Source: an uncultured Actinomycetota bacterium (lineage in GTDB: Bacteria > Actinomycetota > Actinomycetes > CAWDCV01). From it: DNA of 64,000 nt. Position numbers and translations under genes: made by a program. Positions 3,202 through 37,156 of the stretch are shown piece by piece. The stretch lies in NCBI GenBank assembly GCA_963801015.1, contig CAWDCV010000002.1:1307200-1371199 (forward strand), in the 5' to 3' direction. The notes beneath the pieces were generated by a model, which saw only the letters and a program-made list of their open reading frames with translations, did no database searches and was not told where the DNA came from. Position 1 is the stretch's first letter, and each line of letters begins with the position of its first letter.

Positions 3202-3218
3202 ATAAATATGGATAGTAT
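3202..3218. promoter_or_regulatory. Putative 17-bp operator, site 1 (ACAD/FadR divergent promoter)
   Basis: ATAAATATGGATAGTAT within TCATA-N11-TATGA; matches the motif at 7 other promoter regions of the cluster. Confidence 0.6.
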
Positions 3219-3316
3219 GAGGGTCAACATTTCCAGTCGAGCATGCAGCGGTACGGCACAGTGGACGCACCGTCATCCGGTCGGCCCACGCCTTGCAAGG
3301 AAAGGACGGCACGCCC

Positions 3317-4081
3317 ATGTCCCAGGGACAGCCCATGAGTCCCAATGGGGCTGCCCGCCCGCCCAAGGCCGCCATGCTCATCGCGCAGCGGATCATTCGC
3401 GACGTCATCTCTGCCCAGCTCAAGCCGGGTGATCTGCTGCTTCCCGAGCGGACGATGCTCGAGCGCTACCAGACCGGGCGCGGCACGCTGCGCGAGGCGC
3501 TGCGACTGCTCGAGTTCCAAGGCGTGATCTCGCTCAAGCCGGGACCGCGTGGCGGCCCGGTGCTGCAGCAGCCGACGGCCGCTCACCTCGCCAGCACGCT
3601 CGTGCTGTTGCTGCAGCTCAAGGAGGCGCCGTTCCGCAGCATCGTCGAGGTGCGCTCGGCGATGGAGCCGATGATCAGCCGGCTCGCGGCCGAGCGGATG
3701 AGCGACGAGGCGCTCGACGAGCTGAGCGAGACGATCGACCAGATGCGCGACAACCTGGGCAACCAGGACCTGTTCCTGGAGGCCAACAAGCGCTTCCACG
3801 ACATCATCGCCTGGTCGTCGGGCAATCCCCTGTTCGGCTACATCGTCGACTCGCTGCTCGGCATCATGGACGGCACCGTCATTGGCATCGACTACCCCAG
3901 CCCGCGGCGCGCCGCGATCTTGACGGCTCACGACGAGATCTTCCAGGCACTGCGGCGACGCGATCCGGAGGCGGCCGAGGCCCGGATGCGCGAGCACATC
4001 GAGGCGTACGAGCGCTACGCGCAGCGCAAGTTCCCCGAGGTCCTCGACACCGTCATCCGCTGGGATCGGGCGATGATGTAA
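3317..4081 (+). CDS. GntR/FadR family transcriptional regulator (wHTH + FCD)
   Basis: LKPGDLLLPER..GRGTLREALRLLE..GPRGG; FCD motifs NKRFH, SGNPL, HDEI, MREHI. Confidence 0.92.
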   Translation: MSQGQPMSPNGAARPPKAAMLIAQRIIRDVISAQLKPGDLLLPERTMLERYQTGRGTLREALRLLEFQGVISLKPGPRGGPVLQQPTAAHLASTLVLLLQLKEAPFRSIVEVRSAMEPMISRLAAERMSDEALDELSETIDQMRDNLGNQDLFLEANKRFHDIIAWSSGNPLFGYIVDSLLGIMDGTVIGIDYPSPRRAAILTAHDEIFQALRRRDPEAAEARMREHIEAYERYAQRKFPEVLDTVIRWDRAMM

Positions 4082-4082
4082 C

Positions 4083-4125
4083 GACTTCCGACGATGCGGA
4101 GCGCAGCGGAGGCGAGGAGGAAGTC
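4083..4125. terminator. Stem-loop between convergent genes, MIRU-like loop
   Basis: GACTTCC...GGAAGTC enclosing CGACGATGCGGAGCGCAGCGGAGGCGAGGAGG. Confidence 0.5.
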
Positions 4126-4128
4126 AAT

Positions 4129-4971
4129 TCAGTAGAGCGTGTAGCCGCGTTCCGCCGTTGTCCCAAGCACCATGGCCCGCTCGCTGGGTGTCAGGCCATC
4201 GAGCACCTGCTCGGTGACCTCCACCACGACGTCGTACGGCGCGTGCAGCAGCGAGACCGGCCAATCCGAGCCGAACATCACCCGCTCAGCGCCGAACGCC
4301 TCCAGCGCGATGTCGACGTACGGCTGGGTCGGACCGGCCATCGTCAGGATCTGCGACAGCTTGCACGTCACGTTCGGCTCCGCCGCCAGCGTGCGGATGC
4401 CGATTGCCCAGTCATCCAGATCCGCTGGGAGGGTCGGCGGCTTGCCGAGGTGATCGACGACGAAAGTCATGTCCGGGTGGCTGCGGACGGTGTGCAGCAC
4501 CGTGTCCCCGTGCTCGGGCCGGAAGATCAGGTCGTATGGCAGCTGTGCCGCGGCCACCGCCGCAAGTCCACGCTGCACCTGCGGCGAGCCGAGCCAGCCG
4601 GCCGGGTCGTTGTCGACCAGCGCCAGGTGGCGGATGCCGACGAGCCAGCGCCCGTTGGGTTTGTCGCGTAGCTCCGCCAGCCGCTCGGCGACGTCGGGAG
4701 CGGCCAGGTCGACCCAACCCACGACGCCGGCAACCCGCGGTTCGACAGCCGCGTACGCCAGCAGGTCGTCGGTCTCGTCCGGGTCATTGATTGCCTGCAC
4801 GAGGACCGCTGAGTCGACGTCGGTCGCGTCGGCGACGTGAACCCAGTCCGACACGGCGAATGTGCTGCGGATCGCGCTGCGTGCCTCGTCGATCCACGGC
4901 ACGTCTCGGCGAGCGAGGTCCCAGACGTGGACGTGGGCGTCGATGCGGCGCGCATTTCTCGTGTCTTGCAT
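4129..4971 (-). CDS. Amidohydrolase family protein (L-fuconolactonase-like)
   Basis: IDAHVHVW, VVGWVDL, DHLGKP, FGSDWPV. Confidence 0.88.
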   Translation of the reverse strand: MQDTRNARRIDAHVHVWDLARRDVPWIDEARSAIRSTFAVSDWVHVADATDVDSAVLVQAINDPDETDDLLAYAAVEPRVAGVVGWVDLAAPDVAERLAELRDKPNGRWLVGIRHLALVDNDPAGWLGSPQVQRGLAAVAAAQLPYDLIFRPEHGDTVLHTVRSHPDMTFVVDHLGKPPTLPADLDDWAIGIRTLAAEPNVTCKLSQILTMAGPTQPYVDIALEAFGAERVMFGSDWPVSLLHAPYDVVVEVTEQVLDGLTPSERAMVLGTTAERGYTLY

Positions 4972-5144
4972 CACACGGCGTCCCGTGTAGTCCGACGGTG
5001 CGCGGGTATCCATAGGCTCAACCCAAGTAAAGCGTCCCAGTGGTGTTGCCCCGGACCCGGCAGCCCGTCGCACCACGCTGCCGTCGAGACCCGGGAGTAC
5101 CACGTGATCAACCCAGGAACAGCTGCTCGTCCGCGGTCCGCCCG

Positions 5145-6227
5145 ATGACAGCGGTCAGTGACGCCCCACCCCTAGCGGTGGAGTCGACTCCACTGCGCAC
5201 CCGGCACGTCAGCACCTACGCCCAGCTGTCGCGCCGCGTGCAGGAAAGTGGGTTGCTGCGTCGCCGGTACGGCTACTACTGGACCCGGTTGGTCGCGGTC
5301 GTGGTCGCCTTCGTCCTGGTCTGGGTCATCGTCGTGCTCGTCGGTAACTCCTGGATCCAACTGGCGCTGGCGGCCGCACTCGCGGTGATCTCGACCCAGT
5401 TCGGCTTCCTCGGACACGATGCGGCGCACCGCCAGATCTTCGCGTCCCACCGCTGGAACGAGTGGACGTCGCGAGTACTCAGCGCATTCGCAGGGCTCAG
5501 CTACGGCTGGTGGATCAGCAAGCACAATCGCCATCACAAGGCACCCAATCAGGAGGGCAAGGACCCCGACATAGCTCCTGGAGCTCTCGCCTTCACCCCC
5601 GCTGCCGCGGCGGCAAAGACGGGTCTTGCCGCGCGGCTAGCTCGCTACCAAGGCTGGTTCTTCTTCCCGCTGCTCACCCTCGAGGGATTGCACTTGCACG
5701 CCAAGAGCGTCCAGACGGTCTTCCGCCGGGCCCCCCTCTCCCACCGCTGGGTCGAGGCGACCTTCCTCGCCGCGCGTCTCGGCGGCTACCTGGCCGCGCT
5801 CGTCCTGATCCTTCCGCCGGGGAAGGCCGCGGCGTTCTTCGGTGTCCACATGGCCATCTTCGGGGTCCTGCTGGGAGGCGCCTTTGCACCGAATCACAAG
5901 GGGATGCCGATCGTGCCGGCGAACCTCAAGGTCGACTTCCTGCGTCGCCAGGTCCTGATGTCGCGCAACATCCGTGGCGGACGCCTTATCGACTTCGCGA
6001 TGGGCGGTCTGAACTACCAGATCGAGCACCACCTCTTCCCGAGCATGCCCCGGCCCAACCTGAAGCGGGCCCAAGCGATGGTCCGAGCGCATTGCGCCGA
6101 GCAGGGGGTCACGTACACGGAGACGACGCTGCTGAAGTCGTACGGAATCGTGGTGCGCTACCTCAACGCGGTAGGGCTGCGCGCACGTGACCCGTTCGCG
6201 TGTCCGCTGGTGTCGCAGTACCGCTGA
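5145..6227 (+). CDS. Fatty acid (acyl-CoA) desaturase
   Basis: Three His boxes HDAAH, HNRHH, QIEHHLFP; transmembrane segments. Confidence 0.92.
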   Translation: MTAVSDAPPLAVESTPLRTRHVSTYAQLSRRVQESGLLRRRYGYYWTRLVAVVVAFVLVWVIVVLVGNSWIQLALAAALAVISTQFGFLGHDAAHRQIFASHRWNEWTSRVLSAFAGLSYGWWISKHNRHHKAPNQEGKDPDIAPGALAFTPAAAAAKTGLAARLARYQGWFFFPLLTLEGLHLHAKSVQTVFRRAPLSHRWVEATFLAARLGGYLAALVLILPPGKAAAFFGVHMAIFGVLLGGAFAPNHKGMPIVPANLKVDFLRRQVLMSRNIRGGRLIDFAMGGLNYQIEHHLFPSMPRPNLKRAQAMVRAHCAEQGVTYTETTLLKSYGIVVRYLNAVGLRARDPFACPLVSQYR

Positions 6228-6257
6228 GCTGCGCAGCGCCGCGGGCGCTGCGATACA

Positions 6258-6659
6258 TCACACGAGGGGCACGCCGGCACGTGACGCGGCCGACCGCAGC
6301 TTCTCGTCTCGGGTTGCGAGCGGGTTTCCGTCGCGCTCGGCAAGAACGAGATACGAGGAGTCGTAGGCACTGAGCCCGTGGCGTCGGCCGAGAGCCAGCA
6401 CGCTGGCCATATCGGAGGACGTCATGTCGACATGGATCGGCAACCGGGCAAACAGCTCGACGAAACGGGCCGATTGGAACTCGCTGAGCCTGTGTCGTCG
6501 CTCCGCCACGAGCAGGGCGTTCGCTACCTCGAACTCCCAGAGGGTGGGAACGATTGCAGAGTCATCGGCGAGGCGTTCAAGAATCGCTTCCGTCTCGGGT
6601 GTCGTCTCGTCGGCGAAGCACCAGGCGAGCGCAACAGAAGCATCGAGGACGAACGGCAT
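6258..6659 (-). CDS. vapC: VapC PIN-domain toxin
   Basis: FVLDASVAL, EVANAL, LSAYDSSY, LATRD: acidic PIN residues; 133 aa. Confidence 0.92.
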   Translation of the reverse strand: MPFVLDASVALAWCFADETTPETEAILERLADDSAIVPTLWEFEVANALLVAERRHRLSEFQSARFVELFARLPIHVDMTSSDMASVLALGRRHGLSAYDSSYLVLAERDGNPLATRDEKLRSAASRAGVPLV

Positions 6660-6902
6660 CTAGCGTCGGCCTTCATCGATCAGCTCGCGGATCGTCAGGT
6701 CGCCGAGCTCGATGCCCTCTCGTGCGCGTCTCAGCTCGGCGATAACTTCATCGGGCTTCGTCGCACCGGTCCGCATAGGAACCAGTCGGGCCACGGGGAC
6801 TCCGTGTCTAGTGATGACATACGTCTTCCCCGTCCTCGCCACCTCCTCGAGAAGCCGAGGAAGGTGCGTCTTGGCCTCGTATGCGCCCACGGAAGAAGTC
6901 AC
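6660..6902 (-). CDS. vapB: Phd/YefM family antitoxin
   Basis: VGAYEAKTHLPRLL..ITRHGVPVARLVP; directly upstream of vapC. Confidence 0.92.
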   Translation of the reverse strand: MTSSVGAYEAKTHLPRLLEEVARTGKTYVITRHGVPVARLVPMRTGATKPDEVIAELRRAREGIELGDLTIRELIDEGRR

Positions 6903-6910
6903 GAGATCAG

Positions 6911-6927
6911 ACTAGCCGTCGACTAGT
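6911..6927. promoter_or_regulatory. Probable vapBC autoregulatory operator over a leaderless -10
   Basis: ACTAG-N7-CTAGT inverted repeat; minus strand TAGTCT lies 6 nt before the GTG start. Confidence 0.5.
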
Positions 6928-6981
6928 GCAAACACGGCCCTTGGGCCAGAACATGCATCCGAGCCGGGCTAGGGTTCCATC

Positions 6982-7481
6982 GTGGCGGACCAGGACGACC
7001 ACCTCGCGCAGGTAAACATCGCGCTGCCCGTAGAGCCGCTCACGTCGCAGCGGTTGGCAGAGTTCGTCGAGCTGCTCGAGCCGGTCAATGCTCTGGCTGA
7101 CAGCGCACCGGGGTTCGTGTGGCGGTTGCAGACCGAGGACGGCGATGCGACCGCGGTGCGTGCCCTCGGCGATGACCGCTTGATCGTGAACATGAGTGTC
7201 TGGGCATCCGTCGAGGATCTCGCGGCCTTCGTCTTCGGGAGCTACCACGCGGCGGTCATGCGACGCCGACGTGAATGGTTCTCGCGCATGCGTGAGCCGT
7301 ATGCGACTTCCTGGTGGGTCCCCGCCGGTGTGCGTCCCACTGTCGCCGACGCCGAGGAACGGCTTACGGCGCTACGCGCGCACGGACCCACCCCGTTCGC
7401 TTCACGCAGCGGCGATCGTTTCCGCTGCCGGACAGCATCGCCGAGCAGCGCAGCAATGACGACTGGTTCTGCCCGGCTTAG
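6982..7481 (+). CDS. DUF3291 domain protein; apparent frameshift near 7401
   Basis: HLAQVNIA, ADSAPGFVWRL, NMSVW, RRREWF, HGPTPFA; shifted frame gives tail NDDWFCPA*. Confidence 0.82.
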
Positions 7482-7941
7482 GACTGATCCACCGGCTTCT
7501 TGAGGATCATGCCGCTTCGGTGGCAGAGGTGGACGATCTCGTCGCGCTGGTTGTAGCCGCGATGCTCGAACCACACGATGCCCGCTTCGGGCCGGCTTTT
7601 CGACTCGCGCTTGCGCAGGATGGTCGTCTCCGCACGCAGCGTGTCGCCGTGAAAGACCGGGTTGGGAAAGGTCATCTTCTCGTAGCCAAGGTTGCCGATC
7701 GTCGTCCCGAACGTCAGGTCGTAGACGATCATCCCGCCGATGAGACCAGCCGTGTAGAGGCTGTTCATCAGCCGCTGCCCCTGCGGCGATGCTTGCGCGC
7801 GTACTCCTCATCGAGGTGGACCGGGGCGGGATTCATCGTGATCGACGTGAAGAGGACGTTGTCCATCTCCGTCACGGTGCGCCGGTACGCGTGCTTGAAC
7901 TCCGCGCCCTCGTGCATCTCCTCGTACCACAGGCCGGGCAA
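7478..7941 (-). CDS. MaoC family dehydratase (Rv2499c-like); apparent frameshift near 7780
   Basis: TTG start after AGGAGG: GLWYEE..RTVTEMDNVLF..HLDEEY, then MNSLYT..PVFHGDTL..RESKSRP in another frame. Confidence 0.85.
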
Positions 7942-7953
7942 GAGATCCTCCTG

Positions 7954-8848: not shown

Positions 8849-8861
8849 TCGCGGTCGCCCC

Positions 8862-10028
8862 TCAGTAGCTGCGCGGCAGGCCGAGGACATGCTCGCTGAG
8901 GTAGTTGAGCACCATCTCCTGGCTGATCGGCGCCAGCCGCTGCAACCGCGACTCGCGGAAGTAGCGCTCGACGTGGAACTCCTTGCCGAACCCGAACCCG
9001 CCGTGCGTCTGCAACGCGGCGTCCGCGGCACGGAAGGCAGCATCGGCAGCGAGGTACTTCGCCATGTTTGCCTCACGCCCGCAGGGCAGGTCGTGATCGA
9101 CCATCCAGGCGGCCTTCTTGCACATCTCGTCGGCAGCGTCGACGCGCATCAGCGCCTCGGCGAGGGGATGGGCAACAGCCTGGTTCTGCCCGATCGGTCG
9201 GCCGAAGACGACGCGGTCGTTCGCGTACGCCACCGCGCGGCGGATCGCGGCCCGGCCGATGCCGATGGACGCGTTGGCGGCGATGACTCGCTCGGCGTTC
9301 AAGCCGGACAGGATGGTGCGGAAGCCCTTGCCCTCCTCGCCCACGAGATCCTCGTCGGCGACGAACAGGTCGTCGATGAACAGCTCGTTGGTGTCAACCG
9401 CGTTGCGGCCCATCTTCGGGATCGGGCGGATCGAGACGTGGTCGCGATCCATGGGCGCGAACAGCAGCGTCAGCCCGTCGGTCTTCTTCGTCACCTGCGC
9501 CTTGGGCGTCGTCCGGCACAGGAGGAGAAAGCGCTCGGCCTCCTGCGCCTTGGTGATCCACACCTTCTTGCCCGTGACGAGGTAGCCGCCGTCGACCTTC
9601 TTCGCGAACGTCGTGATGTTCGTCGTATCGGTCCCCGCATCCGGCTCGGTGACCGCGAACGAGATGTGCAGGTCACCCGACGTCACGCGCGGCAGGAAGC
9701 GGTGCTTCAAATCCTCTGAGCCGTACTTGATCAGCGGCTCGAAGCCGAAGATGCCGATGTGGACGGCGCTGCAGCCGTTCATGCCGGCGCCGGATGCGGC
9801 GATCTCCTGTTCGACAATCGCTGCCTCGGTGACGCCGAGCCCGCCGCCGCCGTACTCCTCGGGGATGGTGATGCCGAGCCAGCCGGCCTTTGCGACGGCG
9901 TTGTAGAAGTCCCATGGGAACTCGTGGCTCTGGTCGTGCTCGTACCAGTACTCGTCGGGGAAATCACGACACATCTGCCGGACCGCGCTGCGGATGTCCT
10001 CGTGGATCGGGTCCTCGGCGTAGTCCAC
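8862..10028 (-). CDS. Acyl-CoA dehydrogenase
   Basis: FAVTEPDAGTD, GKKVWIT, RVVFGRPIGQNQ, HGGFGF, LGLPRSY; GGAGG RBS before GTG. Confidence 0.93.
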   Translation of the reverse strand: MDYAEDPIHEDIRSAVRQMCRDFPDEYWYEHDQSHEFPWDFYNAVAKAGWLGITIPEEYGGGGLGVTEAAIVEQEIAASGAGMNGCSAVHIGIFGFEPLIKYGSEDLKHRFLPRVTSGDLHISFAVTEPDAGTDTTNITTFAKKVDGGYLVTGKKVWITKAQEAERFLLLCRTTPKAQVTKKTDGLTLLFAPMDRDHVSIRPIPKMGRNAVDTNELFIDDLFVADEDLVGEEGKGFRTILSGLNAERVIAANASIGIGRAAIRRAVAYANDRVVFGRPIGQNQAVAHPLAEALMRVDAADEMCKKAAWMVDHDLPCGREANMAKYLAADAAFRAADAALQTHGGFGFGKEFHVERYFRESRLQRLAPISQEMVLNYLSEHVLGLPRSY

Positions 10029-10059
10029 GTGTTCCTCCGCTTCCGTGTCTCGTGCAATC

Positions 10060-10076
10060 ATGCTAATTGTGCGCAT
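10060..10076. promoter_or_regulatory. Putative 17-bp operator, site 2
   Basis: ATGCTAATTGTGCGCAT; overlaps the hydrolase ATG. Confidence 0.65.
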
Positions 10077-10821
10077 GGATATGGGTCAAGGCGGTGCACC
10101 GTTCGTCATCGTTCACGGAGGCCGGCAGGGCGGCTGGTCGTGGCAGCGGGTGGCGCGGCGACTGCGCTCCCTGCGCCATGAGGTGCTGACGCCGACGCTC
10201 ACCGGAGTCGGCGAGCGGGCCCACCTGCTCCAGCCCGACATCGACCTGGATGCGCACGTTGCGGACCTGCTGGCCGTACTTGAGTACGAGGACGTGCGGG
10301 ACGCGGTCCTGGTCGGGCACAGCTACGGCGGCATGGTGATCACCGCGGCGTGCGAGGCGATGCCGCCGGGGCGGATCGGGTCGCTGATCTACTTCGACGC
10401 GCTGCTGCCGCGTCCTGGTGAGAACGCGTACGACCTCATGAACCCGGCGATCACCGCCGACCTGCGCGCAGCCGTCGCGTCACAGGGAGACGGGTGGCGA
10501 GTCCCGGCGCGGACTGGGCGGGGGGTGTTCGGGCTGACCGACCCGGCCGACGTGGCGTGGGCGGGCGCGCGGCTGACCGACCAGCCGGCGCGGACGTATG
10601 AGCAGCCGCTGCGCAGCGACGCTGCGGCGTCGGCGTATCCGCGAGCGTTCATCCGGTGCACAGACCCGGCGGTCATCCCTGACGATGTCGTCGATCGAGC
10701 GCGCAGGGACCCGTCGTGGCACTACAGCGAGATCGCGGGTCCGCACGCGGCGATGATCTCCGCGCCGGACGTCGTCGCCGACGCCTTGGTGACGGCCGCA
10801 GCTGCGTTGGCACGGTCGTGA
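10075..10821 (+). CDS. Alpha/beta hydrolase (esterase-like)
   Basis: VHGG oxyanion motif, GHSYGG nucleophile, C-terminal His (GPHAAM). Confidence 0.9.
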   Translation: MDMGQGGAPFVIVHGGRQGGWSWQRVARRLRSLRHEVLTPTLTGVGERAHLLQPDIDLDAHVADLLAVLEYEDVRDAVLVGHSYGGMVITAACEAMPPGRIGSLIYFDALLPRPGENAYDLMNPAITADLRAAVASQGDGWRVPARTGRGVFGLTDPADVAWAGARLTDQPARTYEQPLRSDAAASAYPRAFIRCTDPAVIPDDVVDRARRDPSWHYSEIAGPHAAMISAPDVVADALVTAAAALARS

Positions 10822-10977
10822 AGATCGGCGTGAGCGCTACGCCGGCCGTGTAGATCGCCGTGACATCGCTACGGCCGGCCGTGTAGATCGCCGTGACATC
10901 GCAACGCCCGGCCGTGTAGATCGCCGTGAGCGCGAGCCCGTCTGTGCGCGTGCTGAACTTTCACGACGATCTACACG
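10817..10977. repeat. REP-like cluster: 4 direct + 1 inverted copies of CGTGWAGATCGNCGTGA
   Basis: Direct copies at 10817, 10847, 10880, 10913; inverted copy 10961-10977; same family at 57504-57629. Confidence 0.85.
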
Positions 10978-11001
10978 ACTAGCCCCGCAGGGCGTGCCGG
11001 G

Positions 11002-15691: not shown

Positions 15692-15717
15692 GTGAATATC
15701 ATGCGCATGATTGGCAT
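15692..15717. promoter_or_regulatory. Putative operator, site 3 (two overlapping copies)
   Basis: GTGAATATCATGCGCAT (15692-15708) and ATGCGCATGATTGGCAT (15701-15717). Confidence 0.7.
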
Positions 15718-15820: not shown

Positions 15821-17980
15821 GTGGAGACGTCAGGATCTCAGCCGGGGCTACTCCTGCGACCGCTGCTTACGCCGGGCAGCGTGGCCGTGCTCGGAGCGTC
15901 ACCGCGCGCGGGCGGCCATGCCGGCCGGTTGGTCGCGAACCTCGACCGGACCGGCTACACCGGCCGGGTGTTCCCCGTCAATCCGAAGTACGAGCACATC
16001 GGGCAGCATCGCTGCTACCCGTCGATCCTCGATATCGAGGAGCCGGTCGACGCGGCGTACGTGCTGCTGCCCGCGGCGGGCGTCGTCGAGGCGGTGACGC
16101 AGTGCGCGCAGGTCGGCGTGCCCGTGGTCGTCGTCTGCACGTCCGGCTTCGCCGAGCTGGGCGATGAGGGACGCAAGCAGCAGGCGCGCCTGCTCGACGT
16201 GACCCGAGCGTCGGGCACCCGCCTGCTTGGTCCCAACTGCATCGGCGTGCTGAACGTGGTCGACCGCTTCGTCGGTTGCCCGACCTTCAATCTCACGGAG
16301 GACTTCACTCCTGGCATCATCAGCGTGCTCAGCCACAGCGGCGGCATGGGTACGGTCATCGTCAACCGGGCACAGGCGCGCCGGATCGGCATCCGCGCGA
16401 TGGTGAGCCTGGGAAACGAAGCCGACCTCGAGATGGCCGAGCTGGTCGACGTGCTCGTCGACGATCCGGCCACGCGCTGCGTGTGCCTGTTCGTCGAGCA
16501 GCTGCGCGACGGTCCTCGGTTCGTGGCGGCCGCCGAGCGGGCGCGGGCTGCTGGCATCCCGATCGTGGTGGTGAAGTCCGGCCGGTCTGAGGCCGGAGCG
16601 CGCACCGTGCTCGGGCACACCGGAGCGCTGGCCGGTGATGCCGCCGTGTTCTCGGCGGTGCTGCGCGAACTGGGCGCGGTGGAGGTGCGCGGCATCGACG
16701 AGATGCTCGATGCGGCGCTGGTGCTCACTCAGTGCCGGGCGCCGGACGGTCCGCGGCTGGGTGCAGTGTCACCGTCGGGCGGTGAGACCGGGTACGTTGC
16801 GGACTGGGCGTCGGATCGCGGTCTGGTTCTGCCCGCTGTGCAGCCGGACACCGAGAACGCGCTGCGCCCCATGATGCGTTTCGGGACGCCCGGCAACCCG
16901 CTCGACCCGACGGGCGCGGTCATCGGCGATCGCGAGCTACTGCACCGAATGCTCGACGTGTTCGTCGCCGACGATGGCTTCGACATGGTGCACGTTGCGA
17001 TCCCCGCGTGGGGCGTGTACGACGCGACGGCGCTGCTCCCGACCTTTGTCGACGCCGCTCGTACAGCAACCAAGCCGGCGGTGATCTCCAGCTGGAGCGC
17101 TGGACGGCTCACCGAGGCGGCGGACGAGCTCCTGCTCAGCTGCGGGGTGCCCGTGCTGCCGAGCTCCGACCGCGCCGTTGTCGCGCTCGCACACCTGCAC
17201 AACTACTGGCACCGGCAGCTCGCGCTCCGCGCGGAGGCGCCACCACCGCTGTCGCTTGCCGCGCCCGCTGCGGTCGATCCCACGGAGTACGACGCGAAGC
17301 GTTGGCTCGCGAGCGAGACGGGCATCGCCGTCGCCCGCGAGGTGGTCGTCACCCGGCCCGACGAGGTCGTCCATACGGTGCGGCAGTTGCAGCGGCCGCT
17401 TGTCCTCAAGCTGCTCGCGCGCGACGTGGTCCACAAGTCCGACATCGGCCTGGTCGAGCTGGACCTGCGGACCGGTGAGGAGCTGGGAGTGGCCGCCGAC
17501 CGCCTGGCGGAGCGAGCCACGCAACTCGACCTCGACGTCGAGGGTTACCTGGTGGCGGAGCAGGCGAGCGGCCTGGAGGTGCTGGTCGGCGGCCTGCAGG
17601 ACGCGACGTTCGGCCCGATCGTCGCTCTCGGTGCCGGCGGGCTGCTCACCGAGTACCTCGCGGACACCGCGTTCCTGCTGTGCCCGGCGAGCGTGGAGCA
17701 GGTCAGACAGGCGCTGGCGAGGCTGGCGCTGCATCGGCTGCTGTCGGGTGCCCGCGGCCAGCACTACGACGTCGACGCGCTAGTGCGACTGGTTGTCGAG
17801 GTGTCCCGCATCCTCGCCGGCTCACCGTGGCTGGCGGAGCTCGACCTCAACCCCGTCATCGTCCGACCGCACGGGCAAGGATGCGTGGTGGTCGACGCGA
17901 TGCTGCGTGTCACTCGGCCGGCAGATCCGGCAGATCCGGCAGATCCGCTCGTGGCTCGATCTCACGCAGCGCCGGGATGA
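15821..17980 (+). CDS. Acetate--CoA ligase family (ADP-forming acyl-CoA synthetase, fused alpha-beta)
   Basis: SVAVLGAS, GPNCIG, SHSGG, GHTGALAG (phospho-His), HKSDIG, ELDLNP. Confidence 0.92.
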   Translation: METSGSQPGLLLRPLLTPGSVAVLGASPRAGGHAGRLVANLDRTGYTGRVFPVNPKYEHIGQHRCYPSILDIEEPVDAAYVLLPAAGVVEAVTQCAQVGVPVVVVCTSGFAELGDEGRKQQARLLDVTRASGTRLLGPNCIGVLNVVDRFVGCPTFNLTEDFTPGIISVLSHSGGMGTVIVNRAQARRIGIRAMVSLGNEADLEMAELVDVLVDDPATRCVCLFVEQLRDGPRFVAAAERARAAGIPIVVVKSGRSEAGARTVLGHTGALAGDAAVFSAVLRELGAVEVRGIDEMLDAALVLTQCRAPDGPRLGAVSPSGGETGYVADWASDRGLVLPAVQPDTENALRPMMRFGTPGNPLDPTGAVIGDRELLHRMLDVFVADDGFDMVHVAIPAWGVYDATALLPTFVDAARTATKPAVISSWSAGRLTEAADELLLSCGVPVLPSSDRAVVALAHLHNYWHRQLALRAEAPPPLSLAAPAAVDPTEYDAKRWLASETGIAVAREVVVTRPDEVVHTVRQLQRPLVLKLLARDVVHKSDIGLVELDLRTGEELGVAADRLAERATQLDLDVEGYLVAEQASGLEVLVGGLQDATFGPIVALGAGGLLTEYLADTAFLLCPASVEQVRQALARLALHRLLSGARGQHYDVDALVRLVVEVSRILAGSPWLAELDLNPVIVRPHGQGCVVVDAMLRVTRPADPADPADPLVARSHAAPG

Positions 17981-18956
17981 CCTCGCGGCCGAGGTCGCGT
18001 ACCAGCGCGATGGCGTCGTCGGCGCTCATCGACGGCCACTGCGGCCGGAGCAGCAACGGCTCGATAGGGAACGCGCGAGCGAGCGACTGCACCTGGGCGA
18101 TCACCTGCTCGGGCGTACCGAGCAGCGCGTGCCGGCGGACAAGATCGGTGAAGTGCTCGTCCACGTCAGCCTCGCCGTACACGTCCAGACCGCGCTGGGT
18201 GTAGGCCAGGTAGCGGTCGCGGGACACGGCGAGGTAGCGCTCGACGGCGTCCTCGGTGCCGCGACCGAGCATGACGTTGCGCCGCAGCGGCTGCGGTGTC
18301 ATCGGCCGGCCGCGTGCGGCGAAGCCGTCTCGTACGGCCTCGAGCCGCTCGCGGATCTCGTGCGGTTCGGCTTCCGGGTTGCTGACATAGCCGTCACCGA
18401 GGCGCCCGGCCCGGCGCGCACCGGCAATCGCGACGCCGCCGACCCAGATCGGTGGGTGCGGTGCCTGGATGGGCCGCAGGTGCGGCCGGACGTCGCGCAG
18501 CTGCCAGAAGCGTCCCTCGTAGGTGACCTCGTCCTGCGTCCAGAGCAGCGGCAGCAGCTCGAGCATCTCGTCCAGCCGTGGGGCACGCTGCTTGTACGGG
18601 ATGCCGAGCGCCTCGAACTCCTCGGCGCGGTAGCCGAGGCCGACGCCGAAGACGTACCGGCCCTCGGTCACCACGTCGAGGGTCGCGATCTCCTCCGCGA
18701 GCAGCACCGGATGGTAGAGCGGAGCGATCACGATGTTCGAGATGAGTCGCACGTGCGGCTCGACGTCGGCAGCCAATCGCGCCAGCAGGGGGATCGGCTG
18801 CAACCAGCGCAGGTCGCCGTACAGGAAGTGTTGGCCGAGGCAGAAGTCGGTGCAGCCGGCCTTCTGCGCGGCCTCGACGAGCCGGCGGATGTCGGCGAAT
18901 TGCGTGGCTGCGGGTAGATCCGCGCGTACGTCGCTGAGGTGGATGCCGACTCTCAT
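17910..18956 (-). CDS. LLM-class (luciferase-like) oxidoreductase 1
   Basis: GQHFL, PLYHPVLLAEEIATLD, GVGLGYR, PPIWVGG, RRAGRLGDG. Confidence 0.9.
   Translation of the reverse strand: MRVGIHLSDVRADLPAATQFADIRRLVEAAQKAGCTDFCLGQHFLYGDLRWLQPIPLLARLAADVEPHVRLISNIVIAPLYHPVLLAEEIATLDVVTEGRYVFGVGLGYRAEEFEALGIPYKQRAPRLDEMLELLPLLWTQDEVTYEGRFWQLRDVRPHLRPIQAPHPPIWVGGVAIAGARRAGRLGDGYVSNPEAEPHEIRERLEAVRDGFAARGRPMTPQPLRRNVMLGRGTEDAVERYLAVSRDRYLAYTQRGLDVYGEADVDEHFTDLVRRHALLGTPEQVIAQVQSLARAFPIEPLLLRPQWPSMSADDAIALVRDLGREVIPALREIEPRADLPDLPDLPAE
17918..17947. repeat. (CCGGCAGAT)x3.3 tandem repeat inside a convergent gene overlap
   Basis: Reads PADPADPADP on + and DLPDLPDLP on -. Confidence 0.85.
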
Positions 18957-18963
18957 GCGGCCC

Positions 18964-20205
18964 TCATGGTGAGACTGAAGAGCCGAGCCGGGGTCCAGGG
19001 GTGAAGCGCGCCGGGATCCGCTGGTAGCCGGCGTTCACACCCTGGGACGGGTAGGCCTGGACAGCATCCAGGTCCACCTCGTAATCGGGCATCCGTGTAA
19101 GGACCTGGCCAAGCAGCTCACGAGCCATCGCGCGACCGAGGTGGGCGCCTGCACAGCGATGGACACCGATGCCGAAGCCGGCGTGCCGGTTGGGCCAGCG
19201 CAGGATGTCGACCGAGTCGGGCTCGTCGAACGCTTCGGGATCGCGGTTGGCCGACGCCCACGCGAGGAGCACGCGGTCGCCCGGCTGCAGCGGGCAGCCG
19301 GCCAGCGTCGTGTCCTGCGTGACGGTACGCGCCAGTGCCTGGGTGGGCGAGAACGCGCGGAGGAATTCCTCGACGGCGCGCTCGAGCAGGGCGGGATCGT
19401 CGCGCAGTTGCTGCCGCTGCTCGGGGTGGCGGGCGAGGTGGACCAGGGCCTGGCTGACCAGCGAGGCCGTCGTTCCTACGCCGCCGGAGATCAGCAGCTC
19501 GACCATCGAGTAGGCGTCGTCGAGCTCGATCGGGCGCTCGTCGATCTGGGCGGCGACGATCCAGCTGATCAGGTCGTCGCGCGGGTGCTCGCGGCGGTCC
19601 GCGACTGCAGCGCGGATCTGCTCGGTGATCCATGGCAGGTCGATCTCGACGGCGCGGCTGTGCTCGGGGCTGCCCGGGACGTTGGCCAGCACCGCGTGCA
19701 GAGCGCTGGCGTAGCGCTTCCACTCGGCGGTGTCCATGCCCAGCCAGTCCAGAGTGACGACCGCCGGGACGCCAATAACGGAGGCGAAATCGCACTCGCC
19801 GTCCTCGATGACCTGATCGATGAACCACGTCGTCCAGGCCCGAATCGTCGGCAGCAGGTCCTGAATGGCGTCCGGCGTGGTCTTCGGGTTGAGGATCTTG
19901 CGGTACGGGCGCGAGCGCGGCGGGTCGAGCTCGACCGGGATGTGCAGGTGGACCGGGACCTTCGGAATGACGGTCGCGAGGCCCTCACCCCCGCTGCTCG
20001 AGCGGGCCGACGAGAACACCTGGTCGGTGCGCGCGGCCTCGAACACCTCGTCGTACTCGGTCAGGACGTAGTAGCCGCCGTGCGCGCTCGTCCAGACGAT
20101 CGGCCCGTACTCCCGCAGCCGGCGGTAACTCGCCACCGGGTCGGCCGCATGCTCGGGCGAGGTGTGGTCGAAGTCGACGACAGGACAGGAGGGCGACTCG
20201 GGCAT
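18964..20205 (-). CDS. Cytochrome P450 (paralog 1)
   Basis: EEFLR (ExxR), FGIGVHRCAG heme motif, atypical I-helix GGVGTT. Confidence 0.95.
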   Translation of the reverse strand: MPESPSCPVVDFDHTSPEHAADPVASYRRLREYGPIVWTSAHGGYYVLTEYDEVFEAARTDQVFSSARSSSGGEGLATVIPKVPVHLHIPVELDPPRSRPYRKILNPKTTPDAIQDLLPTIRAWTTWFIDQVIEDGECDFASVIGVPAVVTLDWLGMDTAEWKRYASALHAVLANVPGSPEHSRAVEIDLPWITEQIRAAVADRREHPRDDLISWIVAAQIDERPIELDDAYSMVELLISGGVGTTASLVSQALVHLARHPEQRQQLRDDPALLERAVEEFLRAFSPTQALARTVTQDTTLAGCPLQPGDRVLLAWASANRDPEAFDEPDSVDILRWPNRHAGFGIGVHRCAGAHLGRAMARELLGQVLTRMPDYEVDLDAVQAYPSQGVNAGYQRIPARFTPGPRLGSSVSP

Positions 20206-20206
20206 G

Positions 20207-20683: not shown

Positions 20684-20734
20684 GGCGCATCTCCCTATGA
20701 GCACGGATGTCGTCGCTCTGCCCCGGGCGCAAGT

Positions 20735-20751
20735 ATGATAATGGTTCGCAT
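20735..20751. promoter_or_regulatory. Putative 17-bp operator, site 4
   Basis: ATGATAATGGTTCGCAT; overlaps the -10 and the ATG of LLM 2. Confidence 0.7.
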
Positions 20752-21787
20752 GGAGATCGGCGTCATCCTCGGCGACGTCCGCACCTCGCTGTCGCCACGC
20801 GAGCACCTCGACAACCTGCTGCGACAGGTGGAGGCGGCGCAGCGCGCCGGCATCACCTACGTGACGATCGGGCAGCACTACCTGTACGGCGACCTGCGCT
20901 GGCTGCAGCCGATCCCCACGCTCGCGCGCCTTGCCGCCGAGCTCGACGACTCGGTGACACTGGCCACGACCATCGTCCAGGTGCCCCTGTACCACCCGGT
21001 CGCACTCGCCGAAGATCTCGCAACGCTCGACATCCTGACGCGCGGGCGACTCGTGGTCGGGGCGGGCGCCGGCTACCGGCGCGACGAGTTCGACGCGTTC
21101 GAGATCGACTTCTCTGCGCGCTTCGCGATGCTCGATGAGTCGTTAACGCTGATCAAGCAGCTGTGGACCGAGCCGGCGGTGACGTTCTCTGGCCGGTTCT
21201 GGTCGGTGACCGACGTCCGGCCTCACATTCAGCCGTGGCAGCAGCCTCATCCGCCGATCTGGATCGGGGCGATGACGGAGACCGGCGTCCGGCGCTCGGC
21301 GCGCCTCGGCGACGGCTGGCCGATCACGCCGGAGACGCGGGTGCCCGACATCGTGCGGTTGCTCTCGGTGTACGAGGACGAGCGGACGCGGCTGGGACGA
21401 CCCCAGGTCCGACATCCCCTCCGACACGAGATCGTGCCGGCCGCGACGACATCACTCGCCTACGAGCGGTTCGAGTCGATGGCGAAGGCACGGCTGATGG
21501 CGTACGCGCAGCGTTCACTGGCCACGCGCGATGCGGCGGAGATCGACGCCGACTTCCGGGCGCTGGCGGAGAAGGAAGCCTTTCTCGGGACGCCTGCGGA
21601 ATGCGTGGCGCAGATCGCCGCGTTGGCGGCTCTGGCGCCGATCGACCCGATCCTCGTGCGCGCGCAGTGGCCGGACATGTCAGGTGACGACGTGGTCGCC
21701 TACCTCGACGACCTGGGCCGCGACATCGTCCCCGCCCTCCGCGAGATCACCTCCGTCCCCCGCGTCGTCCGTTCAGCGTCACAATGA
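20750..21787 (+). CDS. LLM-class oxidoreductase 2
   Basis: GQHYLYGDLRWLQPIP, LAEDLATLD, PPIWIG; close paralog of LLM 1. Confidence 0.9.
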   Translation: MEIGVILGDVRTSLSPREHLDNLLRQVEAAQRAGITYVTIGQHYLYGDLRWLQPIPTLARLAAELDDSVTLATTIVQVPLYHPVALAEDLATLDILTRGRLVVGAGAGYRRDEFDAFEIDFSARFAMLDESLTLIKQLWTEPAVTFSGRFWSVTDVRPHIQPWQQPHPPIWIGAMTETGVRRSARLGDGWPITPETRVPDIVRLLSVYEDERTRLGRPQVRHPLRHEIVPAATTSLAYERFESMAKARLMAYAQRSLATRDAAEIDADFRALAEKEAFLGTPAECVAQIAALAALAPIDPILVRAQWPDMSGDDVVAYLDDLGRDIVPALREITSVPRVVRSASQ

Positions 21788-26534: not shown

Positions 26535-26567
26535 TTGACAGGGAGTATCTAGGATAACCATTATCAG
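26535..26567. promoter_or_regulatory. TTGACA -35 box plus putative operator, site 5
   Basis: TTGACA 26535-26540; AGGATAACCATTATCAG 26551-26567 (reverse complement CTGATAATGGTTATCCT). Confidence 0.65.
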
Positions 26568-27885: not shown

Positions 27886-28674
27886 CTAGTTGAGGATGAG
27901 GCCGCCCTCCATCGGAAGGATCGCGCCGTTGAGATAGGCGCCCTGCGGCGACGCGAGGAACACGACCAGATTGGCGATGTCCTCGGGCTCGGCCATCCGG
28001 CCGGCGGGGATGTTGTCGATGAGTCGCTTTCGCAGTGCCGGATCGTCTTGCACCTGCTGTGACATCGCGGTACGGACCGCGCCCGGGCAGATGGCGTTGA
28101 CACGAATGCCATGCCGTGCGTACGTCAACACCAGCGCTCGTGTCAGGCCGATCACACCGGCCTTCGACGACGCGTACGCAATCGCCGCGCTGCCGATCAG
28201 CGCGCCCGAGACGGACGCCGTGAACACGATGCTGCCGCCACCACTGCCGCCACTGGCGCCATCGAGCAGCAGCGGCATCGCATGCTTGCTGCAGAGGTAC
28301 GCTCCGGTCAGGTTGACGTCGATGGTGCGCTGCCAGGTAGCGATATCGAGGGTGTCGAGCGGGCCGTCGTTGCCGACGCCGTGTCCGAGAAATATGCCGG
28401 CGTTGCTGTGCAGCACGTCGAGCCGCCCGTACTCCTGGCGCACGGCAGCGAACGCAGCAACCACCGAGCCCTCGTCGGAGACGTCGCACACTCGCGCCGC
28501 AGCACCCTCTCCCAGCGCTGCAGCGACCTGCGACGCTGCCTCGATCTGAACATCGAGGAGCACCACCCGGTAGCCCGCGTTATGCAGGGCGCGGGCCGAC
28601 GCGGCACCCACTCCAGCGCCCGCTCCCGTCACCACGGCCACCGGGTTCATCGCAGCGCTCTGGTCACTAACCAT
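27886..28674 (-). CDS. SDR oxidoreductase (start 28674 or 28650)
   Basis: TGAGAGVG, SNAG, YASSK, NAICPG. Confidence 0.9.
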   Translation of the reverse strand: MVSDQSAAMNPVAVVTGAGAGVGAASARALHNAGYRVVLLDVQIEAASQVAAALGEGAAARVCDVSDEGSVVAAFAAVRQEYGRLDVLHSNAGIFLGHGVGNDGPLDTLDIATWQRTIDVNLTGAYLCSKHAMPLLLDGASGGSGGGSIVFTASVSGALIGSAAIAYASSKAGVIGLTRALVLTYARHGIRVNAICPGAVRTAMSQQVQDDPALRKRLIDNIPAGRMAEPEDIANLVVFLASPQGAYLNGAILPMEGGLILN

Positions 28675-28695
28675 GGTTATGAATATCATGGACAT
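28673..28695. promoter_or_regulatory. Putative operator, site 6 (two overlapping copies)
   Basis: ATGGTTATGAATATCAT (28673-28689) and ATGAATATCATGGACAT (28679-28695). Confidence 0.7.
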
Positions 28696-28716
28696 CCGGC
28701 AGTGAGGGAGAGGCGC

Positions 28717-34911: not shown

Positions 34912-36137
34912 CCGCCGCAACCGCTGCCGTCCGGCGTACCGATCGGCCACTGCCGGCAGCCGCGCTCATCGCGCTGTTCGCTCTCATCGGGCTGAACCTG
35001 CGGTCGGTGTTCGGCGCCGTACCGCCGCTGCTCGACGACATCGGCGCGGATCTCGCACTGTCCGGCTTCGCTCTCAGCCTGCTGACCGCGATCCCCACCC
35101 TGTGCCTGGGCTTGCTCGCCCCGCCGGCGTCACGGCTGGCGCTGCGGATCGGGCACGAGCAGGTTACGGCCGCTGCCTTGGTCGTGCTGACGCTCGCCGA
35201 GGCGCTGCGCCTCGCCGGTTCCGTCGTGGCGCTGCTCTACCTCTCGACGTTTCTCACCGGCGCCGCGATCGGCGCCATCTCGACGATGATGCCGGCCTTG
35301 CTCGGCTATCACCTGGAGTCGCGACCCGGGCTCGGTGCCGGTGTCTACTCCACCGCGATGGCGACCGCGTCGGCGTGCGCCGCATGGCTTGCCGTCCCCC
35401 TCGCGACCAGCCTCGGCGGGTGGAACCGGTCGCTGGCATCGTGGTCGCTGCTCACCGCTGTCACGACCGCCTGCTGGTTGCTGGTGCTGCCGCGGCTCAC
35501 CCGGCCCGCGTCTGCACAGCCAACGGAGCCCGAAGCGAGTGGGTTGCCCTGGCGCAGTCGCACGGCGTGGCTCCTCACGGCGTACTTCGCCCTGCAGACA
35601 TTCGTCGGTTTCGCGGCTATGACGTGGGTTGCCCCGGCGTACCGAGACGCAGGCTGGAGTGCTGACGCTGCGAGCCGGCTCCTCTCTGTGTTCTTCGCGA
35701 TCCAGATCGTCGGCATGCTCGTCCTGCCTGCGATCACCGACCGCACGACAGATCGCCGCCCGGTGCTCCTGCTGTCATCGGGGACCTGCACGCTCGGTTT
35801 GCTGTGCCTGGCGGCGACCCCGTCGCTCGCCTGGGTCGGTGCGGTGCTGTTCGGACTCGGGATCGGCGGCGGCTTCGCGGTAGGCCTCGTGCTGCTCGTC
35901 GACGTGACCCGCAGCCGCGCGGAGGCCGCTCGCCTGTCGGCGATGGTCTTCCTGCTGTCCTACACCTTCGCCACCCTGGGGCCCGTCCTCGTCGGGGTCC
36001 TGCGCGATGTCACCGGTGGGTACGCGCTGGGCTTCTGGTGCCTGACCGTCGCGGGTCTGGGGTTGGTGGCCGTCGTGCCGTTCCTGCGCCCCAGCCTCGA
36101 CCTGCTTGATCGGGACCCTTGTCCCGCGAATGATTGA
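34908..36137 (+). CDS. MFS transporter (CynX-like)
   Basis: IGLNLR..VPPLL, about 12 hydrophobic segments, AARLSAM. Confidence 0.88.
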   Translation: MTAATAAVRRTDRPLPAAALIALFALIGLNLRSVFGAVPPLLDDIGADLALSGFALSLLTAIPTLCLGLLAPPASRLALRIGHEQVTAAALVVLTLAEALRLAGSVVALLYLSTFLTGAAIGAISTMMPALLGYHLESRPGLGAGVYSTAMATASACAAWLAVPLATSLGGWNRSLASWSLLTAVTTACWLLVLPRLTRPASAQPTEPEASGLPWRSRTAWLLTAYFALQTFVGFAAMTWVAPAYRDAGWSADAASRLLSVFFAIQIVGMLVLPAITDRTTDRRPVLLLSSGTCTLGLLCLAATPSLAWVGAVLFGLGIGGGFAVGLVLLVDVTRSRAEAARLSAMVFLLSYTFATLGPVLVGVLRDVTGGYALGFWCLTVAGLGLVAVVPFLRPSLDLLDRDPCPAND

Positions 36138-36153
36138 TGAATACCATGCGCAT
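36137..36153. promoter_or_regulatory. Putative 17-bp operator, site 7
   Basis: ATGAATACCATGCGCAT, followed by a TAGACT -10 and a GGAGG RBS. Confidence 0.7.
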
Positions 36154-36180
36154 AGACTGCTGACCAGTTCGGAGGATCCC

Positions 36181-36738
36181 ATGGGCCTGACCACCGAGGA
36201 ACGCGTACGTCGGCTGGAAGACAGGGCCGCGATCCAGGACCTCGCGGTGATGTACGGCTACGTGATGGACGAGCGTGTCGTCGACGGGATTGCGCGGCTC
36301 TTCACCGACGATGCGACGCTGCGTTCAGCCGACGGTGTCTTCGCCGCGACCGGCCTCGACGAGATCGTGAAGACGTACCAGGGCCGCTTCGACGTGCTCG
36401 GCCCGACCAACCACTTCGTGCACGGCCACGTGGTGCAGTTCGACGATGCTGAGCCGGACGTCGCGACCGGCATCGTCTCGTCGCACGCCGAGGTCGTCCG
36501 CAATGACCAGCCGATGTGGGTGGCGCTGCGCTACCAGGACACCTACCGGCGCACGCCGGAGGGCTGGCGGTTCGCCGACCGGCTGATGTCCTACATGTAT
36601 TACGTGGACGTGCGCGAGTACGCCGAGGTGCTCGGGCAGGAGCTGCGGGTGCGGACGTACGACCAGCCAGCCCCAGGCGACTGGCCGCAGTCGCTGCGCG
36701 GCGAGTCCGTCGACTGGGTGACGGGGTATCTCGACTAG
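36181..36738 (+). CDS. NTF2/SnoaL-like protein (BaiE/LinA-like fold)
   Basis: LEDRAAIQDL..YGYVMD, LFTDDA, TNHF, YQDTYRR..WRFADR. Confidence 0.85.
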   Translation: MGLTTEERVRRLEDRAAIQDLAVMYGYVMDERVVDGIARLFTDDATLRSADGVFAATGLDEIVKTYQGRFDVLGPTNHFVHGHVVQFDDAEPDVATGIVSSHAEVVRNDQPMWVALRYQDTYRRTPEGWRFADRLMSYMYYVDVREYAEVLGQELRVRTYDQPAPGDWPQSLRGESVDWVTGYLD

Positions 36739-36787
36739 CGCGCAGCCACCTGCGGTTCTGCGCAACTGGCAGTGATGCGATACGCCT

Positions 36788-36857
36788 CGAGTTAGGGCGA
36801 TACGCCCTCTATAACAGGCGTATTACCCGAAATGATCACGTATACGTGATCATTTCG
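36788..36857. repeat. Double-hairpin REP-like element, copy B (inverted relative to copy A)
   Basis: 30-bp perfect palindrome CGAAATGATCACGTATACGTGATCATTTCG; 60/68 identical to 1128-1195 by manual alignment. Confidence 0.8.
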
Positions 36858-36877
36858 ACGGGCCGGGCGGGTCGGAA

Positions 36878-37090
36878 CTAGCCCGCGTGGACGGCGCTCT
36901 GCAGCACCGAGATCGCCCGCTCCGGGCAGCTGTCGACGCCGAGCTGGGCGTCGGCCTCGAGCTCGGGCGGCACCGGATCGACCATGACGATGGAGTGCCC
37001 GTCCTCGGGATCCAACTCGTAGACGTCAGGTGCGCTCATGTGGCAGACCCCATGACCCTGGCAGACGTCCAAGTCCACTCCGACACGCAT
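36878..37090 (-). CDS. 3Fe-4S ferredoxin (P450-associated type)
   Basis: CQGHGVC..CPERAI; 70 aa. Confidence 0.92.
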   Translation of the reverse strand: MRVGVDLDVCQGHGVCHMSAPDVYELDPEDGHSIVMVDPVPPELEADAQLGVDSCPERAISVLQSAVHAG

Positions 37091-37139
37091 GACGGATCCC
37101 CTTCGACCAGCTCGGAGGTACGGCCCTCCGCTGCTATTT

Positions 37140-37156
37140 AGGATAAGGATTATCAC
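37140..37156. promoter_or_regulatory. Putative 17-bp operator, site 8 (ferredoxin promoter)
   Basis: AGGATAAGGATTATCAC, near-identical to site 5. Confidence 0.65.

Follow-up and report, generated by a model that had tools for sequence, protein, structure and literature searches.

Is there one signal that ties together the promoters of a large catabolic gene cluster, and if so, which protein reads it? The question is raised by a 64,000-nucleotide (nt) stretch, hereafter the window, of a 3.93-Mb Actinomycetota genome with 68% G+C, in which positions 1-38000 form a dense catabolic cluster as judged from Pfam matches and a reading of the open reading frames (ORFs). Here the original prediction, made from the letters alone, had placed ten copies of a 17-bp motif at eight promoter regions and had proposed that the product of a gene at 3317-4081, called FadR, binds them. 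Our analyses indicate that the motif is very probably a true conserved operator of a cluster-specific regulon, whichever protein binds it.

All ten predicted strings are present at the coordinates and on the strands that had been given, and the layout of six divergent gene pairs plus the promoters of a SnoaL/NTF2-like gene and a ferredoxin gene was described correctly (Table 1). Compared with the earlier consensus ATGnnnATnATnnnCAT (11 specified positions), the sites at 15701 and 28679 have no mismatch, those at 10060, 15692, 20735, 28673 and 36137 have one, the two on the reverse strand (26551 and 37140) have three, and 3202 has four. For the exact pattern the window has two occurrences where 0.01 would be expected, and none of 100 shuffles reached two. 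Allowing up to two mismatches gave 28 matches, a number likewise reached by none of 100 shuffles (mean 4.29, largest 11); many of the additional matches are ATGATCATC-like strings in coding DNA.

Two kinds of matrix set these sites against the rest of the genome. With leave-one-out matrices built from the window's own sites, we counted equal-or-better positions outside window positions 1-40000, i.e. among some 7.9 million strand positions. By this measure the genome offers hardly any equal to 20735, 15692 and 36137 (0, 3 and 4 positions, respectively); 28679, 26551, 37140 and 10060 follow as good sites with 9, 14, 20 and 22, and 3202, with 214, is a weak site. The other matrix was made from 88 distinct non-coding matches in foreign loci, and its ranks were taken over 3.93 million genome positions: 28679 ranked #3, 28673 #6, 15692 #14, 20735 #15, 36137 #23, 15701 #35 and 26551 #37, with the weaker sites 37140, 10060 and 3202 at #127, #364 and #696. 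A 17-mer at 3193-3209, which overlaps the 3202 site, ranked #12 with this matrix, and the region 3193-3218 holds this better site together with the one originally predicted at 3202-3218.

The same other-genome matrix also served to measure enrichment. At 18 bits or more, 37 matches were found in the genome, of which 11 fell within the 60-kb cluster (0.56 expected), and at 16 bits or more the cluster held 18 of 79 (1.2 expected). Equal frequency at unrelated promoters of this genome had been set beforehand as an outcome refuting the prediction; the genome-wide matrix counts show that the motif is not equally frequent there. Nor is base composition the source of the signal, as AT-rich islands are hardly enriched (19 in the 62.8-kb cluster, with 13.3 expected from the genome average); the signal thus lies in the pattern. 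A test confined to intergenic DNA, using longest-ORF gene calls, gave a still significant enrichment, with five matches in the cluster (0.21 expected) and 10 outside at 17 bits, but over-extended 5' ORF ends masked most true sites and left only three to six cluster sites, and the counts over all positions are preferred. Similarly, matrix refinement on whole loci drifted to coding ATGATCATC-type strings and was redone on the non-coding parts only.

The motif can be written as an imperfect 17-bp palindrome of 8-1-8 build, ATGmwnAT-s-ATnwkCAT, a build that had been described correctly. In the foreign-site matrix the paired positions are A/T (1/17), T/A (2/16), G/C (3/15), M/K (4/14), W/W (5/13), A/T (7/11) and T/A (8/10), around a centre of C or G. 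The correlation of the matrix with its own reverse complement (r=0.83) was reached in none of 2000 column shuffles. Several sites are overlapping doubles, with an offset of 9 bp at 15692/15701 and of 6 bp at 28673/28679 and at two further doubles to the left of the window. The first of these, at 15692..15717, includes a perfect 14-bp palindrome, ATCATGCGCATGAT.

To follow the motif into other genera, we used the cluster's central AtuA protein as query and found 30 loci, about 25 of which (61-73% identity) have the same gene neighbourhood. The carriers belong to Nocardioides, Rhodococcus, Dactylosporangium, Planosporangium, Plantactinospora, Lapillicoccus, Candidatus Phosphoribacter and uncultured Actinomycetota, while a kinship search among 60 relatives gave little, namely a single congeneric genome and a single ortholog at 82%. 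A matrix from seven window sites was then scored on the foreign loci with a threshold of at least 15 bits, for which the background is 0.015 matches per 200 nt. Upstream of the binding-protein ortholog, nine of nine other loci passed this threshold with the same double site; upstream of the SnoaL and LLM orthologs, 7/14 and 6/22 did so. For the P450 gene served by the 26551 site, two of 19 ortholog upstream regions reached 15 bits and 17 of 19 reached 13.3, and they share one conserved 17-mer behind a conserved TTGACA. The motif is thus found at the same promoters in other genera (syntenic clusters of Nocardioides, Micromonosporaceae, Lapillicoccus and uncultured Actinomycetota), as the prediction implied it should be, whereas none of 95 junctions inside operons reached 15 bits (AtuA 0/24, CoA ligase 0/22, aldehyde dehydrogenase 0/17, livH 0/7, AtuA-ferredoxin 0/25). 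Most telling is the binding-protein promoter, where a block of about 26-30 bp (cacATGCnAATCATGnGCATGATATTCAt) is near-invariant while the protein is only ~50% identical; the window's copy of this block includes the palindrome ATCATGCGCATGAT. The matrices were seeded from the originally predicted sites, so that the cross-genome tests are not fully independent, which tells somewhat against the operator reading; the conserved blocks are, however, visible in plain upstream listings, independent of any matrix.

Enrichment, palindromy and conservation all bear out the idea that the motif defines a regulon, the extent of which is larger than had been stated. To the left of the window, at distances of 1.7 kb and 12.4 kb, sites occur in two additional promoter regions (Table 1), and several of the foreign clusters have the motif ahead of npdG-fbiC-like F420 genes and of a ferredoxin reductase gene as well. 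Outside the cluster there are few non-coding matches in 3.9 Mb. The best of these, C4:567555, overlaps the etfB start codon; C4:267266 precedes a SnoaL-AraC-glyoxalase operon, and C4:738528 lies between a DUF4287 gene and an uncharacterised gene. As a candidate member of the regulon etfBA was rejected, since none of five etfB upstream regions from four other carrier genomes has a site and the matches fall only inside the coding start (the G063 copy at a contig end, L057, has no upstream sequence and was excluded).

Which protein, then, binds the motif? On balance, the FCD-type GntR regulator encoded at 3317-4081 is the most likely predicted binder. Its Pfam domains (PF00392, 5.8e-10; PF07729, 1.7e-29; on window 3293-4081) are those of an FCD-type GntR, and the earlier label of FadR has to be dropped: the protein has no equivalog assignment and is not a FadR ortholog. 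All of its NCBIfam matches are below cut-off, the best being to the NanR subfamily (118.6 bits against a cut-off of 260), and among PDB matches the nearest structure is 2DI3, with NanR (6ON4) also matched. The gene is the single copy of its group in the genome, and an FCD-type GntR is the only regulator that Pfam detects across the window and the adjoining 20 kb on its left. All five carrier genomes searched have a GntR ortholog (54-76% identity) that shares its contig with the AtuA locus and typically lies between liv genes and a divergent hydratase or dehydrogenase gene, and tblastn revealed a further ortholog in L023. Among 62 flanking proteins of eight orthologous loci, the regulators were FCD-GntR proteins (two loci) and one MarR-like protein at a locus edge. 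The group is otherwise rare, with matches at E <=1e-45 in two of 400 other genomes sampled across the phylum. The main argument is that the motif is kept with a patchy island in distant hosts, so its binder should move with the island, as an island-borne regulator would; a host-encoded global factor would not explain this pattern. The predicted recognition helix (GRGTLREALRLLE) and a lengthened wing, LKPGPxGGP, are near-invariant across orthologs and paralogs alike, an invariance that speaks neither for nor against the GntR protein as binder.

The GntR protein probably also controls its own promoter region, as judged from the upstream sequences. Autoregulation had been proposed from the 3202 site; a site upstream of the regulator gene does exist, although it is the one at 3193-3209 rather than the weak 3202. 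All four close GntR orthologs (L044, L045, L046, L047) have upstream scores of 17-22 at a distance of 46-94 nt, a match is also present in L034, and three more distant homologs have matches of 14.7-18.1. Metagenome contigs supplied 39 distinct upstream regions of GntR genes, of which 18 have a score of 12 or more, as against 18 of 696 control windows, and 35 a score of 8 or more, as against 49 of 696.

Several observations weigh against the GntR protein as the reader of this motif. Only seven of the 39 metagenome GntR upstream regions reach 15, the elements that precede GntR orthologs deviate from the motif in having T for A at position 10, and their TAATCT/TATCTT stretch could simply be a predicted -10 box. 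The sites lack the core of the family's operators, yet alignments indicate that the protein keeps the arginines that we take, from the contact list of FadR, to be the family's usual DNA contacts. Operators of the FadR subfamily are described in PMC4494728 as palindromic and A/T-rich with TKGT/ACMA boxes and a GT-AC spacing of 2-3 nt; the 88-site matrix has ATG/CAT ends and AT-s-AT at positions 7-11, and no GT/AC pair at the spacing given there. Some clusters, moreover, encode a second GntR paralog (51-57% identity) whose recognition helix hardly differs, so that either paralog could be the binder. At the paralog loci L050 and L051 no site of 12 or more was found with the window matrix; with the other-genome matrix, L050 has one match, about 1.2 kb past the 3' end of the gene and not upstream of it.

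The second paralog also figures in one rival explanation, namely that an unrecognised DNA-binding protein of the island binds the motif, either the product of an ORF without Pfam match or this paralog, and that the 3317-4081 protein serves only a subset of the sites or a different motif. We regard this as quite unlikely. The paralog adjoins the ortholog in three of five genomes, and the window has ORFs without family match at 7242-7811, 37222-37761 and 39375-39983; yet the present genome has one GntR of the group together with the full set of sites, and the 62 flanking proteins scanned at orthologous loci included no other regulator within the clusters, unassigned ORFs there not being among the searches. 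A different palindrome, of the GTGCACAT-nn-ATGTGCAC type and perfect in the copy at about 3228-3290 of L047/L049 (a Rhodococcus genome), precedes the second paralogous GntR gene and may be that paralog's own operator.

It is also improbable that a regulator from outside the cluster (the Fur-family Zur, Fur or a PerR-like protein, or some other global factor) binds the motif and makes the island metal- or redox-responsive. The original prediction had itself raised this alternative on the strength of a 12/14 match to the Fur 7-1-7 box at promoter regions 5 and 8. The match holds for 26551 and 37140, and the Fur consensus TGATAATnATTATCA is indeed one instance of the degenerate palindrome; metal control is unlikely, the Fur genes being elsewhere. 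The sites 20735 and 28673 match the box at 11/14 positions and the remaining six at 7-9/14, the latter including 15692/15701 (9/14), and the strongest conserved sites, of the ATGCGAATCATGTGCAT type, fit it poorly. The motif has the geometry of the Fur box and its TG..AT-n-AT..CA skeleton, and the 6-bp-offset double at 28673/28679 resembles overlapping classic Fur boxes, but the best-conserved sites have TGCnnAT half-sites. Iron proteins are numerous in the cluster (P450s, ferredoxin); its targets are nonetheless catabolic enzymes rather than functions of metal homeostasis or oxidative stress, and no Fur regulator is linked to it, as all three Fur-family genes of the genome are outside the cluster and the 62 proteins flanking eight orthologous clusters include no Fur-family member. 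Among the best outside matches, C2:40442, the highest non-coding one after that at etfB, lies at the start of a znuA-znuC-znuB-fur operon and thus, like the two 12/14 matches, counts against an island-borne binder; it is most simply explained as a Zur site that resembles the motif. Of the znuA palindrome, TTGACAACCATTGTCAA, the genome contains no further copy at up to three mismatches, and hence the cluster contains none.

The region before that operon (G000:C2:40421-40458, L002) deserves a note of its own, as it contains the unique palindrome and a second box overlapping the znuA start, and is probably the Zur operator of this organism.

How the sites relate to promoters bears on both the mechanism and the last alternative. 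A sigma-70-like scan of window positions 1-38000 gave five promoter-like matches, all five of which overlap a site (Table 1), as the earlier claim of overlap with -10 boxes would have it; a search of positions 1-40000 with Rfam gave no match at gathering score. Relative to the motif, the predicted -10 hexamer takes four or more different registers, so that the motif is not itself a fixed promoter element. A plain sigma-70-type element would keep a fixed register to the -35 box and the start site and need no dyad; here registers vary and the matrix is symmetric. The CAT end of the sites 10060 and 20735 overlaps with the ATG start codon of the gene that follows. In L008, which has an 82%-identical ortholog, the left half of the 20735 site is kept while the start codon lies farther downstream, behind a ribosome-binding site.

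The idea suggested by 10060 and 20735, that the motif is a -10 box plus a leaderless start codon, was rejected as a complete explanation on account of the L008 leader and the differing registers. In its broader form, in which the island has no dedicated operator but only a shared promoter build inherited within it (AT-rich TAYGAT-type -10 boxes, leaderless start codons, duplicated promoters), the explanation is very unlikely: the most conserved core, T-A-T-(C/G)-A-T at matrix positions 6-11, does read as an actinobacterial -10 hexamer (consensus TANNNT), start codons do overlap two sites and the elements upstream of GntR orthologs do include TGnTAATCT, an extended -10 look-alike, but the symmetry reaches positions 1-3 and 15-17, which a promoter does not need, the L008 site is kept despite its leader, and neither the near-invariant blocks at the binding-protein promoter nor the scarcity of matches elsewhere in the genome fits such an origin.

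To return to the operator with the FCD-GntR protein as its candidate reader, the motif would be bound by a repressor dedicated to the catabolic island, with sites that cover the -10 hexamer, or the spacer between it and the -35 box, at 10 or more promoters. Since the sites lie on promoter cores, several of them as doubles, a bound protein would block RNA polymerase, either as a dimer or as a cooperative array on the overlapping doubles (6 or 9 bp), and release would come from a pathway intermediate, perhaps a carboxylate or an acyl-CoA; we infer the repression as well as the binder and its ligand. A more far-reaching picture would be of an FCD-GntR that has abandoned the GT/AC recognition core of its family, reads a Fur-box-like 8-1-8 palindrome, often in overlapping arrays, rides a horizontally scattered F420/P450/AtuA island degrading a terpenoid- or steroid-like substrate, and switches at least 12 promoters, including npdG and fbiC in some hosts. 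To this combination as a whole we would give slightly less than an even chance.

Known regulators offer partial parallels. With the FadR subfamily (FadR, PdhR, LldR, GlcC) the system would share a GntR winged helix joined to an FCD domain, a ~17-bp A/T-rich palindrome in divergent intergenic regions and before the regulator gene, and extra adjacent half-sites or double sites (PMC4494728). It differs in the missing TKGT/ACMA core, in a protein that reaches no curated ortholog group, and in a wing longer by two residues (LKPGPxGGP), a feature common to the Corynebacterium glutamicum structure 2DI3. FCD regulators with sites off the family consensus do exist, and PMC4494728 describes two, NanR (TGGTATAW repeats) and BioR (TTATMKATAA). 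The closely spaced arrays found here recall those of NanR, but they are made of inverted rather than direct repeats, and the motif sequence is unrelated to the NanR or BioR boxes. In the KstR/KstR2 regulons of actinobacterial steroid catabolism, a cluster-encoded repressor acts through a short palindromic operator at many promoters, the same one-repressor logic for a large multi-operon lipid or terpenoid catabolic island. KstR proteins, however, belong to the TetR family and have another motif, and Pfam scans of the window plus 20 kb to its left found no TetR gene.

Local repressors with palindromic operators are common on catabolic clusters, and the principle is therefore unsurprising. What the motif provides is a regulon map of a large uncharacterised catabolic island in soil Actinomycetota, showing which operons belong together across Nocardioides, Rhodococcus, Micromonosporaceae, Intrasporangiaceae and uncultured lineages, and including F420 supply genes in some of these hosts. 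It also singles out one regulator: its ligand should tell what substrate the pathway acts on, and regulator and operator together could serve as a biosensor for the inducer. If the GntR protein is the binder, the site would add a case with many members to the FCD regulators that use non-canonical operators, useful for the specificity rules of this very large family. Our literature search found no description of the motif, the regulator or the cluster; RegPrecise and the supplementary site tables of PMC4494728, which could hold a related motif, were outside that search.

Table 1. Operator sites, candidate regulator, promoter-like matches and gene content of the catabolic island. Coordinates are window positions unless a contig is named.
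Feature	Coordinates	Strand	Context
Operator region	3193..3218		Between acyl-CoA dehydrogenase gene (2006-3190, minus) and GntR gene (3317-4081, plus)
Weak site	10060..10076		Between acyl-CoA dehydrogenase gene (8862-10076 ORF, minus) and alpha/beta-hydrolase gene (plus)
Double site	15692-15708 + 15701-15717		Between Liv-type binding-protein gene (minus) and NDP-forming acyl-CoA synthetase gene (plus)
Site	20735..20751		Between F420H2-dependent reductase gene (20207-20683, minus) and LLM oxidoreductase gene (20750-21787, plus)
Site	26551..26567		Between aldehyde dehydrogenase-AtuA operon (minus) and P450 gene 26605 (plus)
Double site	28673-28689 + 28679-28695		Between SDR gene (minus) and P450 gene 28717 (plus)
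Site	36137..36153		~40 nt upstream of SnoaL_4 (NTF2-like) gene, start near 36190
Weaker site	37140..37156		Upstream of ferredoxin gene (minus); build near-identical to 26551
Double site	C2:1305529-1305551 (L001)		Between acyl-CoA dehydrogenase gene and thiolase gene
Double site	C2:1294779-1294801 (L001)		Between acyl-CoA dehydrogenase gene and SDR gene
FCD-type GntR regulator gene, candidate binder	3317..4081	plus	Pfam GntR and FCD domains
Promoter-like TTGACC-17-TATGAT	3227-3199	minus	Overlaps 3193-3218 site region
Promoter-like TTGACC-18-TAGCAT	10089-10060	minus	Overlaps site 10060
Promoter-like TTCACA-16-GATATT	15722-15695	minus	Overlaps double site 15692/15701
Promoter-like TTGACA-18-CATTAT	26535-26564	plus	Its -10 within site 26551
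Promoter-like TGGTCA-17-TATCAT	28661-28689	plus	Its -10 within double site 28673/28679
Enoyl-CoA hydratases, two acyl-CoA dehydrogenases	1-38000		Cluster
Amidohydrolase, desaturase, HpcH-type aldolase	1-38000		Cluster
Five-gene Liv-type ABC importer, NDP-forming acyl-CoA synthetase	1-38000		Cluster
Three luciferase-like (F420-type LLM) oxidoreductases, F420H2-dependent reductase	1-38000		Cluster
Three P450s, ferredoxin	1-38000		Cluster
Two AtuA-type proteins, two CoA ligases, aldehyde dehydrogenase	1-38000		Cluster
SDRs, MFS transporter, SnoaL/NTF2-like protein	1-38000		Cluster
Further acyl-CoA dehydrogenases, thiolases, AtuA, LLM, CoA ligase, aldehyde dehydrogenase, CoA-transferase	L001		Left extension

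The island as a whole, whose products include beta-oxidation enzymes, is about 50 kb in size and continues beyond the window's left edge for 12 kb or more. Two of its P450s have PDB matches to CYP125, CYP142, P450cin and P450cam (E about 1e-45 to 1e-59), matches that do not fix the substrate. The gene at 20207-20683 (minus), a member of the F420H2-dependent quinone-reductase family, is absent from the longest-ORF listing. This reductase, the three F420-type LLM genes in the 17910-21787 region and the npdG/fbiC genes of orthologous clusters together suggest that the pathway runs on cofactor F420.

Some minor features of the island concern non-coding DNA and gene integrity. Between the convergent SnoaL and ferredoxin genes lies a perfect 30-bp palindrome (36828-36857; 15-nt arms, no loop) that includes ATGATCAC, a string also found in orthologous operator sites; it could be a terminator or the site of another protein. 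In the intergenic region after the alpha/beta-hydrolase gene, a 33-bp unit is repeated in tandem 3.6 times (10813-10929, 89% matches). Mid-way, the catabolic cluster is interrupted by a PIN-domain toxin gene (6258-6659, minus) and a Phd/YefM antitoxin gene (6663-6899, minus). A single enoyl-CoA hydratase profile is matched in its first part by ORF 341-871 and in its last part by the consecutive ORF 840-1103, and 341-1103 looks like a frameshifted or split gene for this enzyme. A second split gene of the cluster may be present at 3871-5513 of L001, where the AtuA profile covers its first half only, on ORF 4740-5513, and the AtuA-ferredoxin domain is on ORF 3871-4284, with a gap between them.

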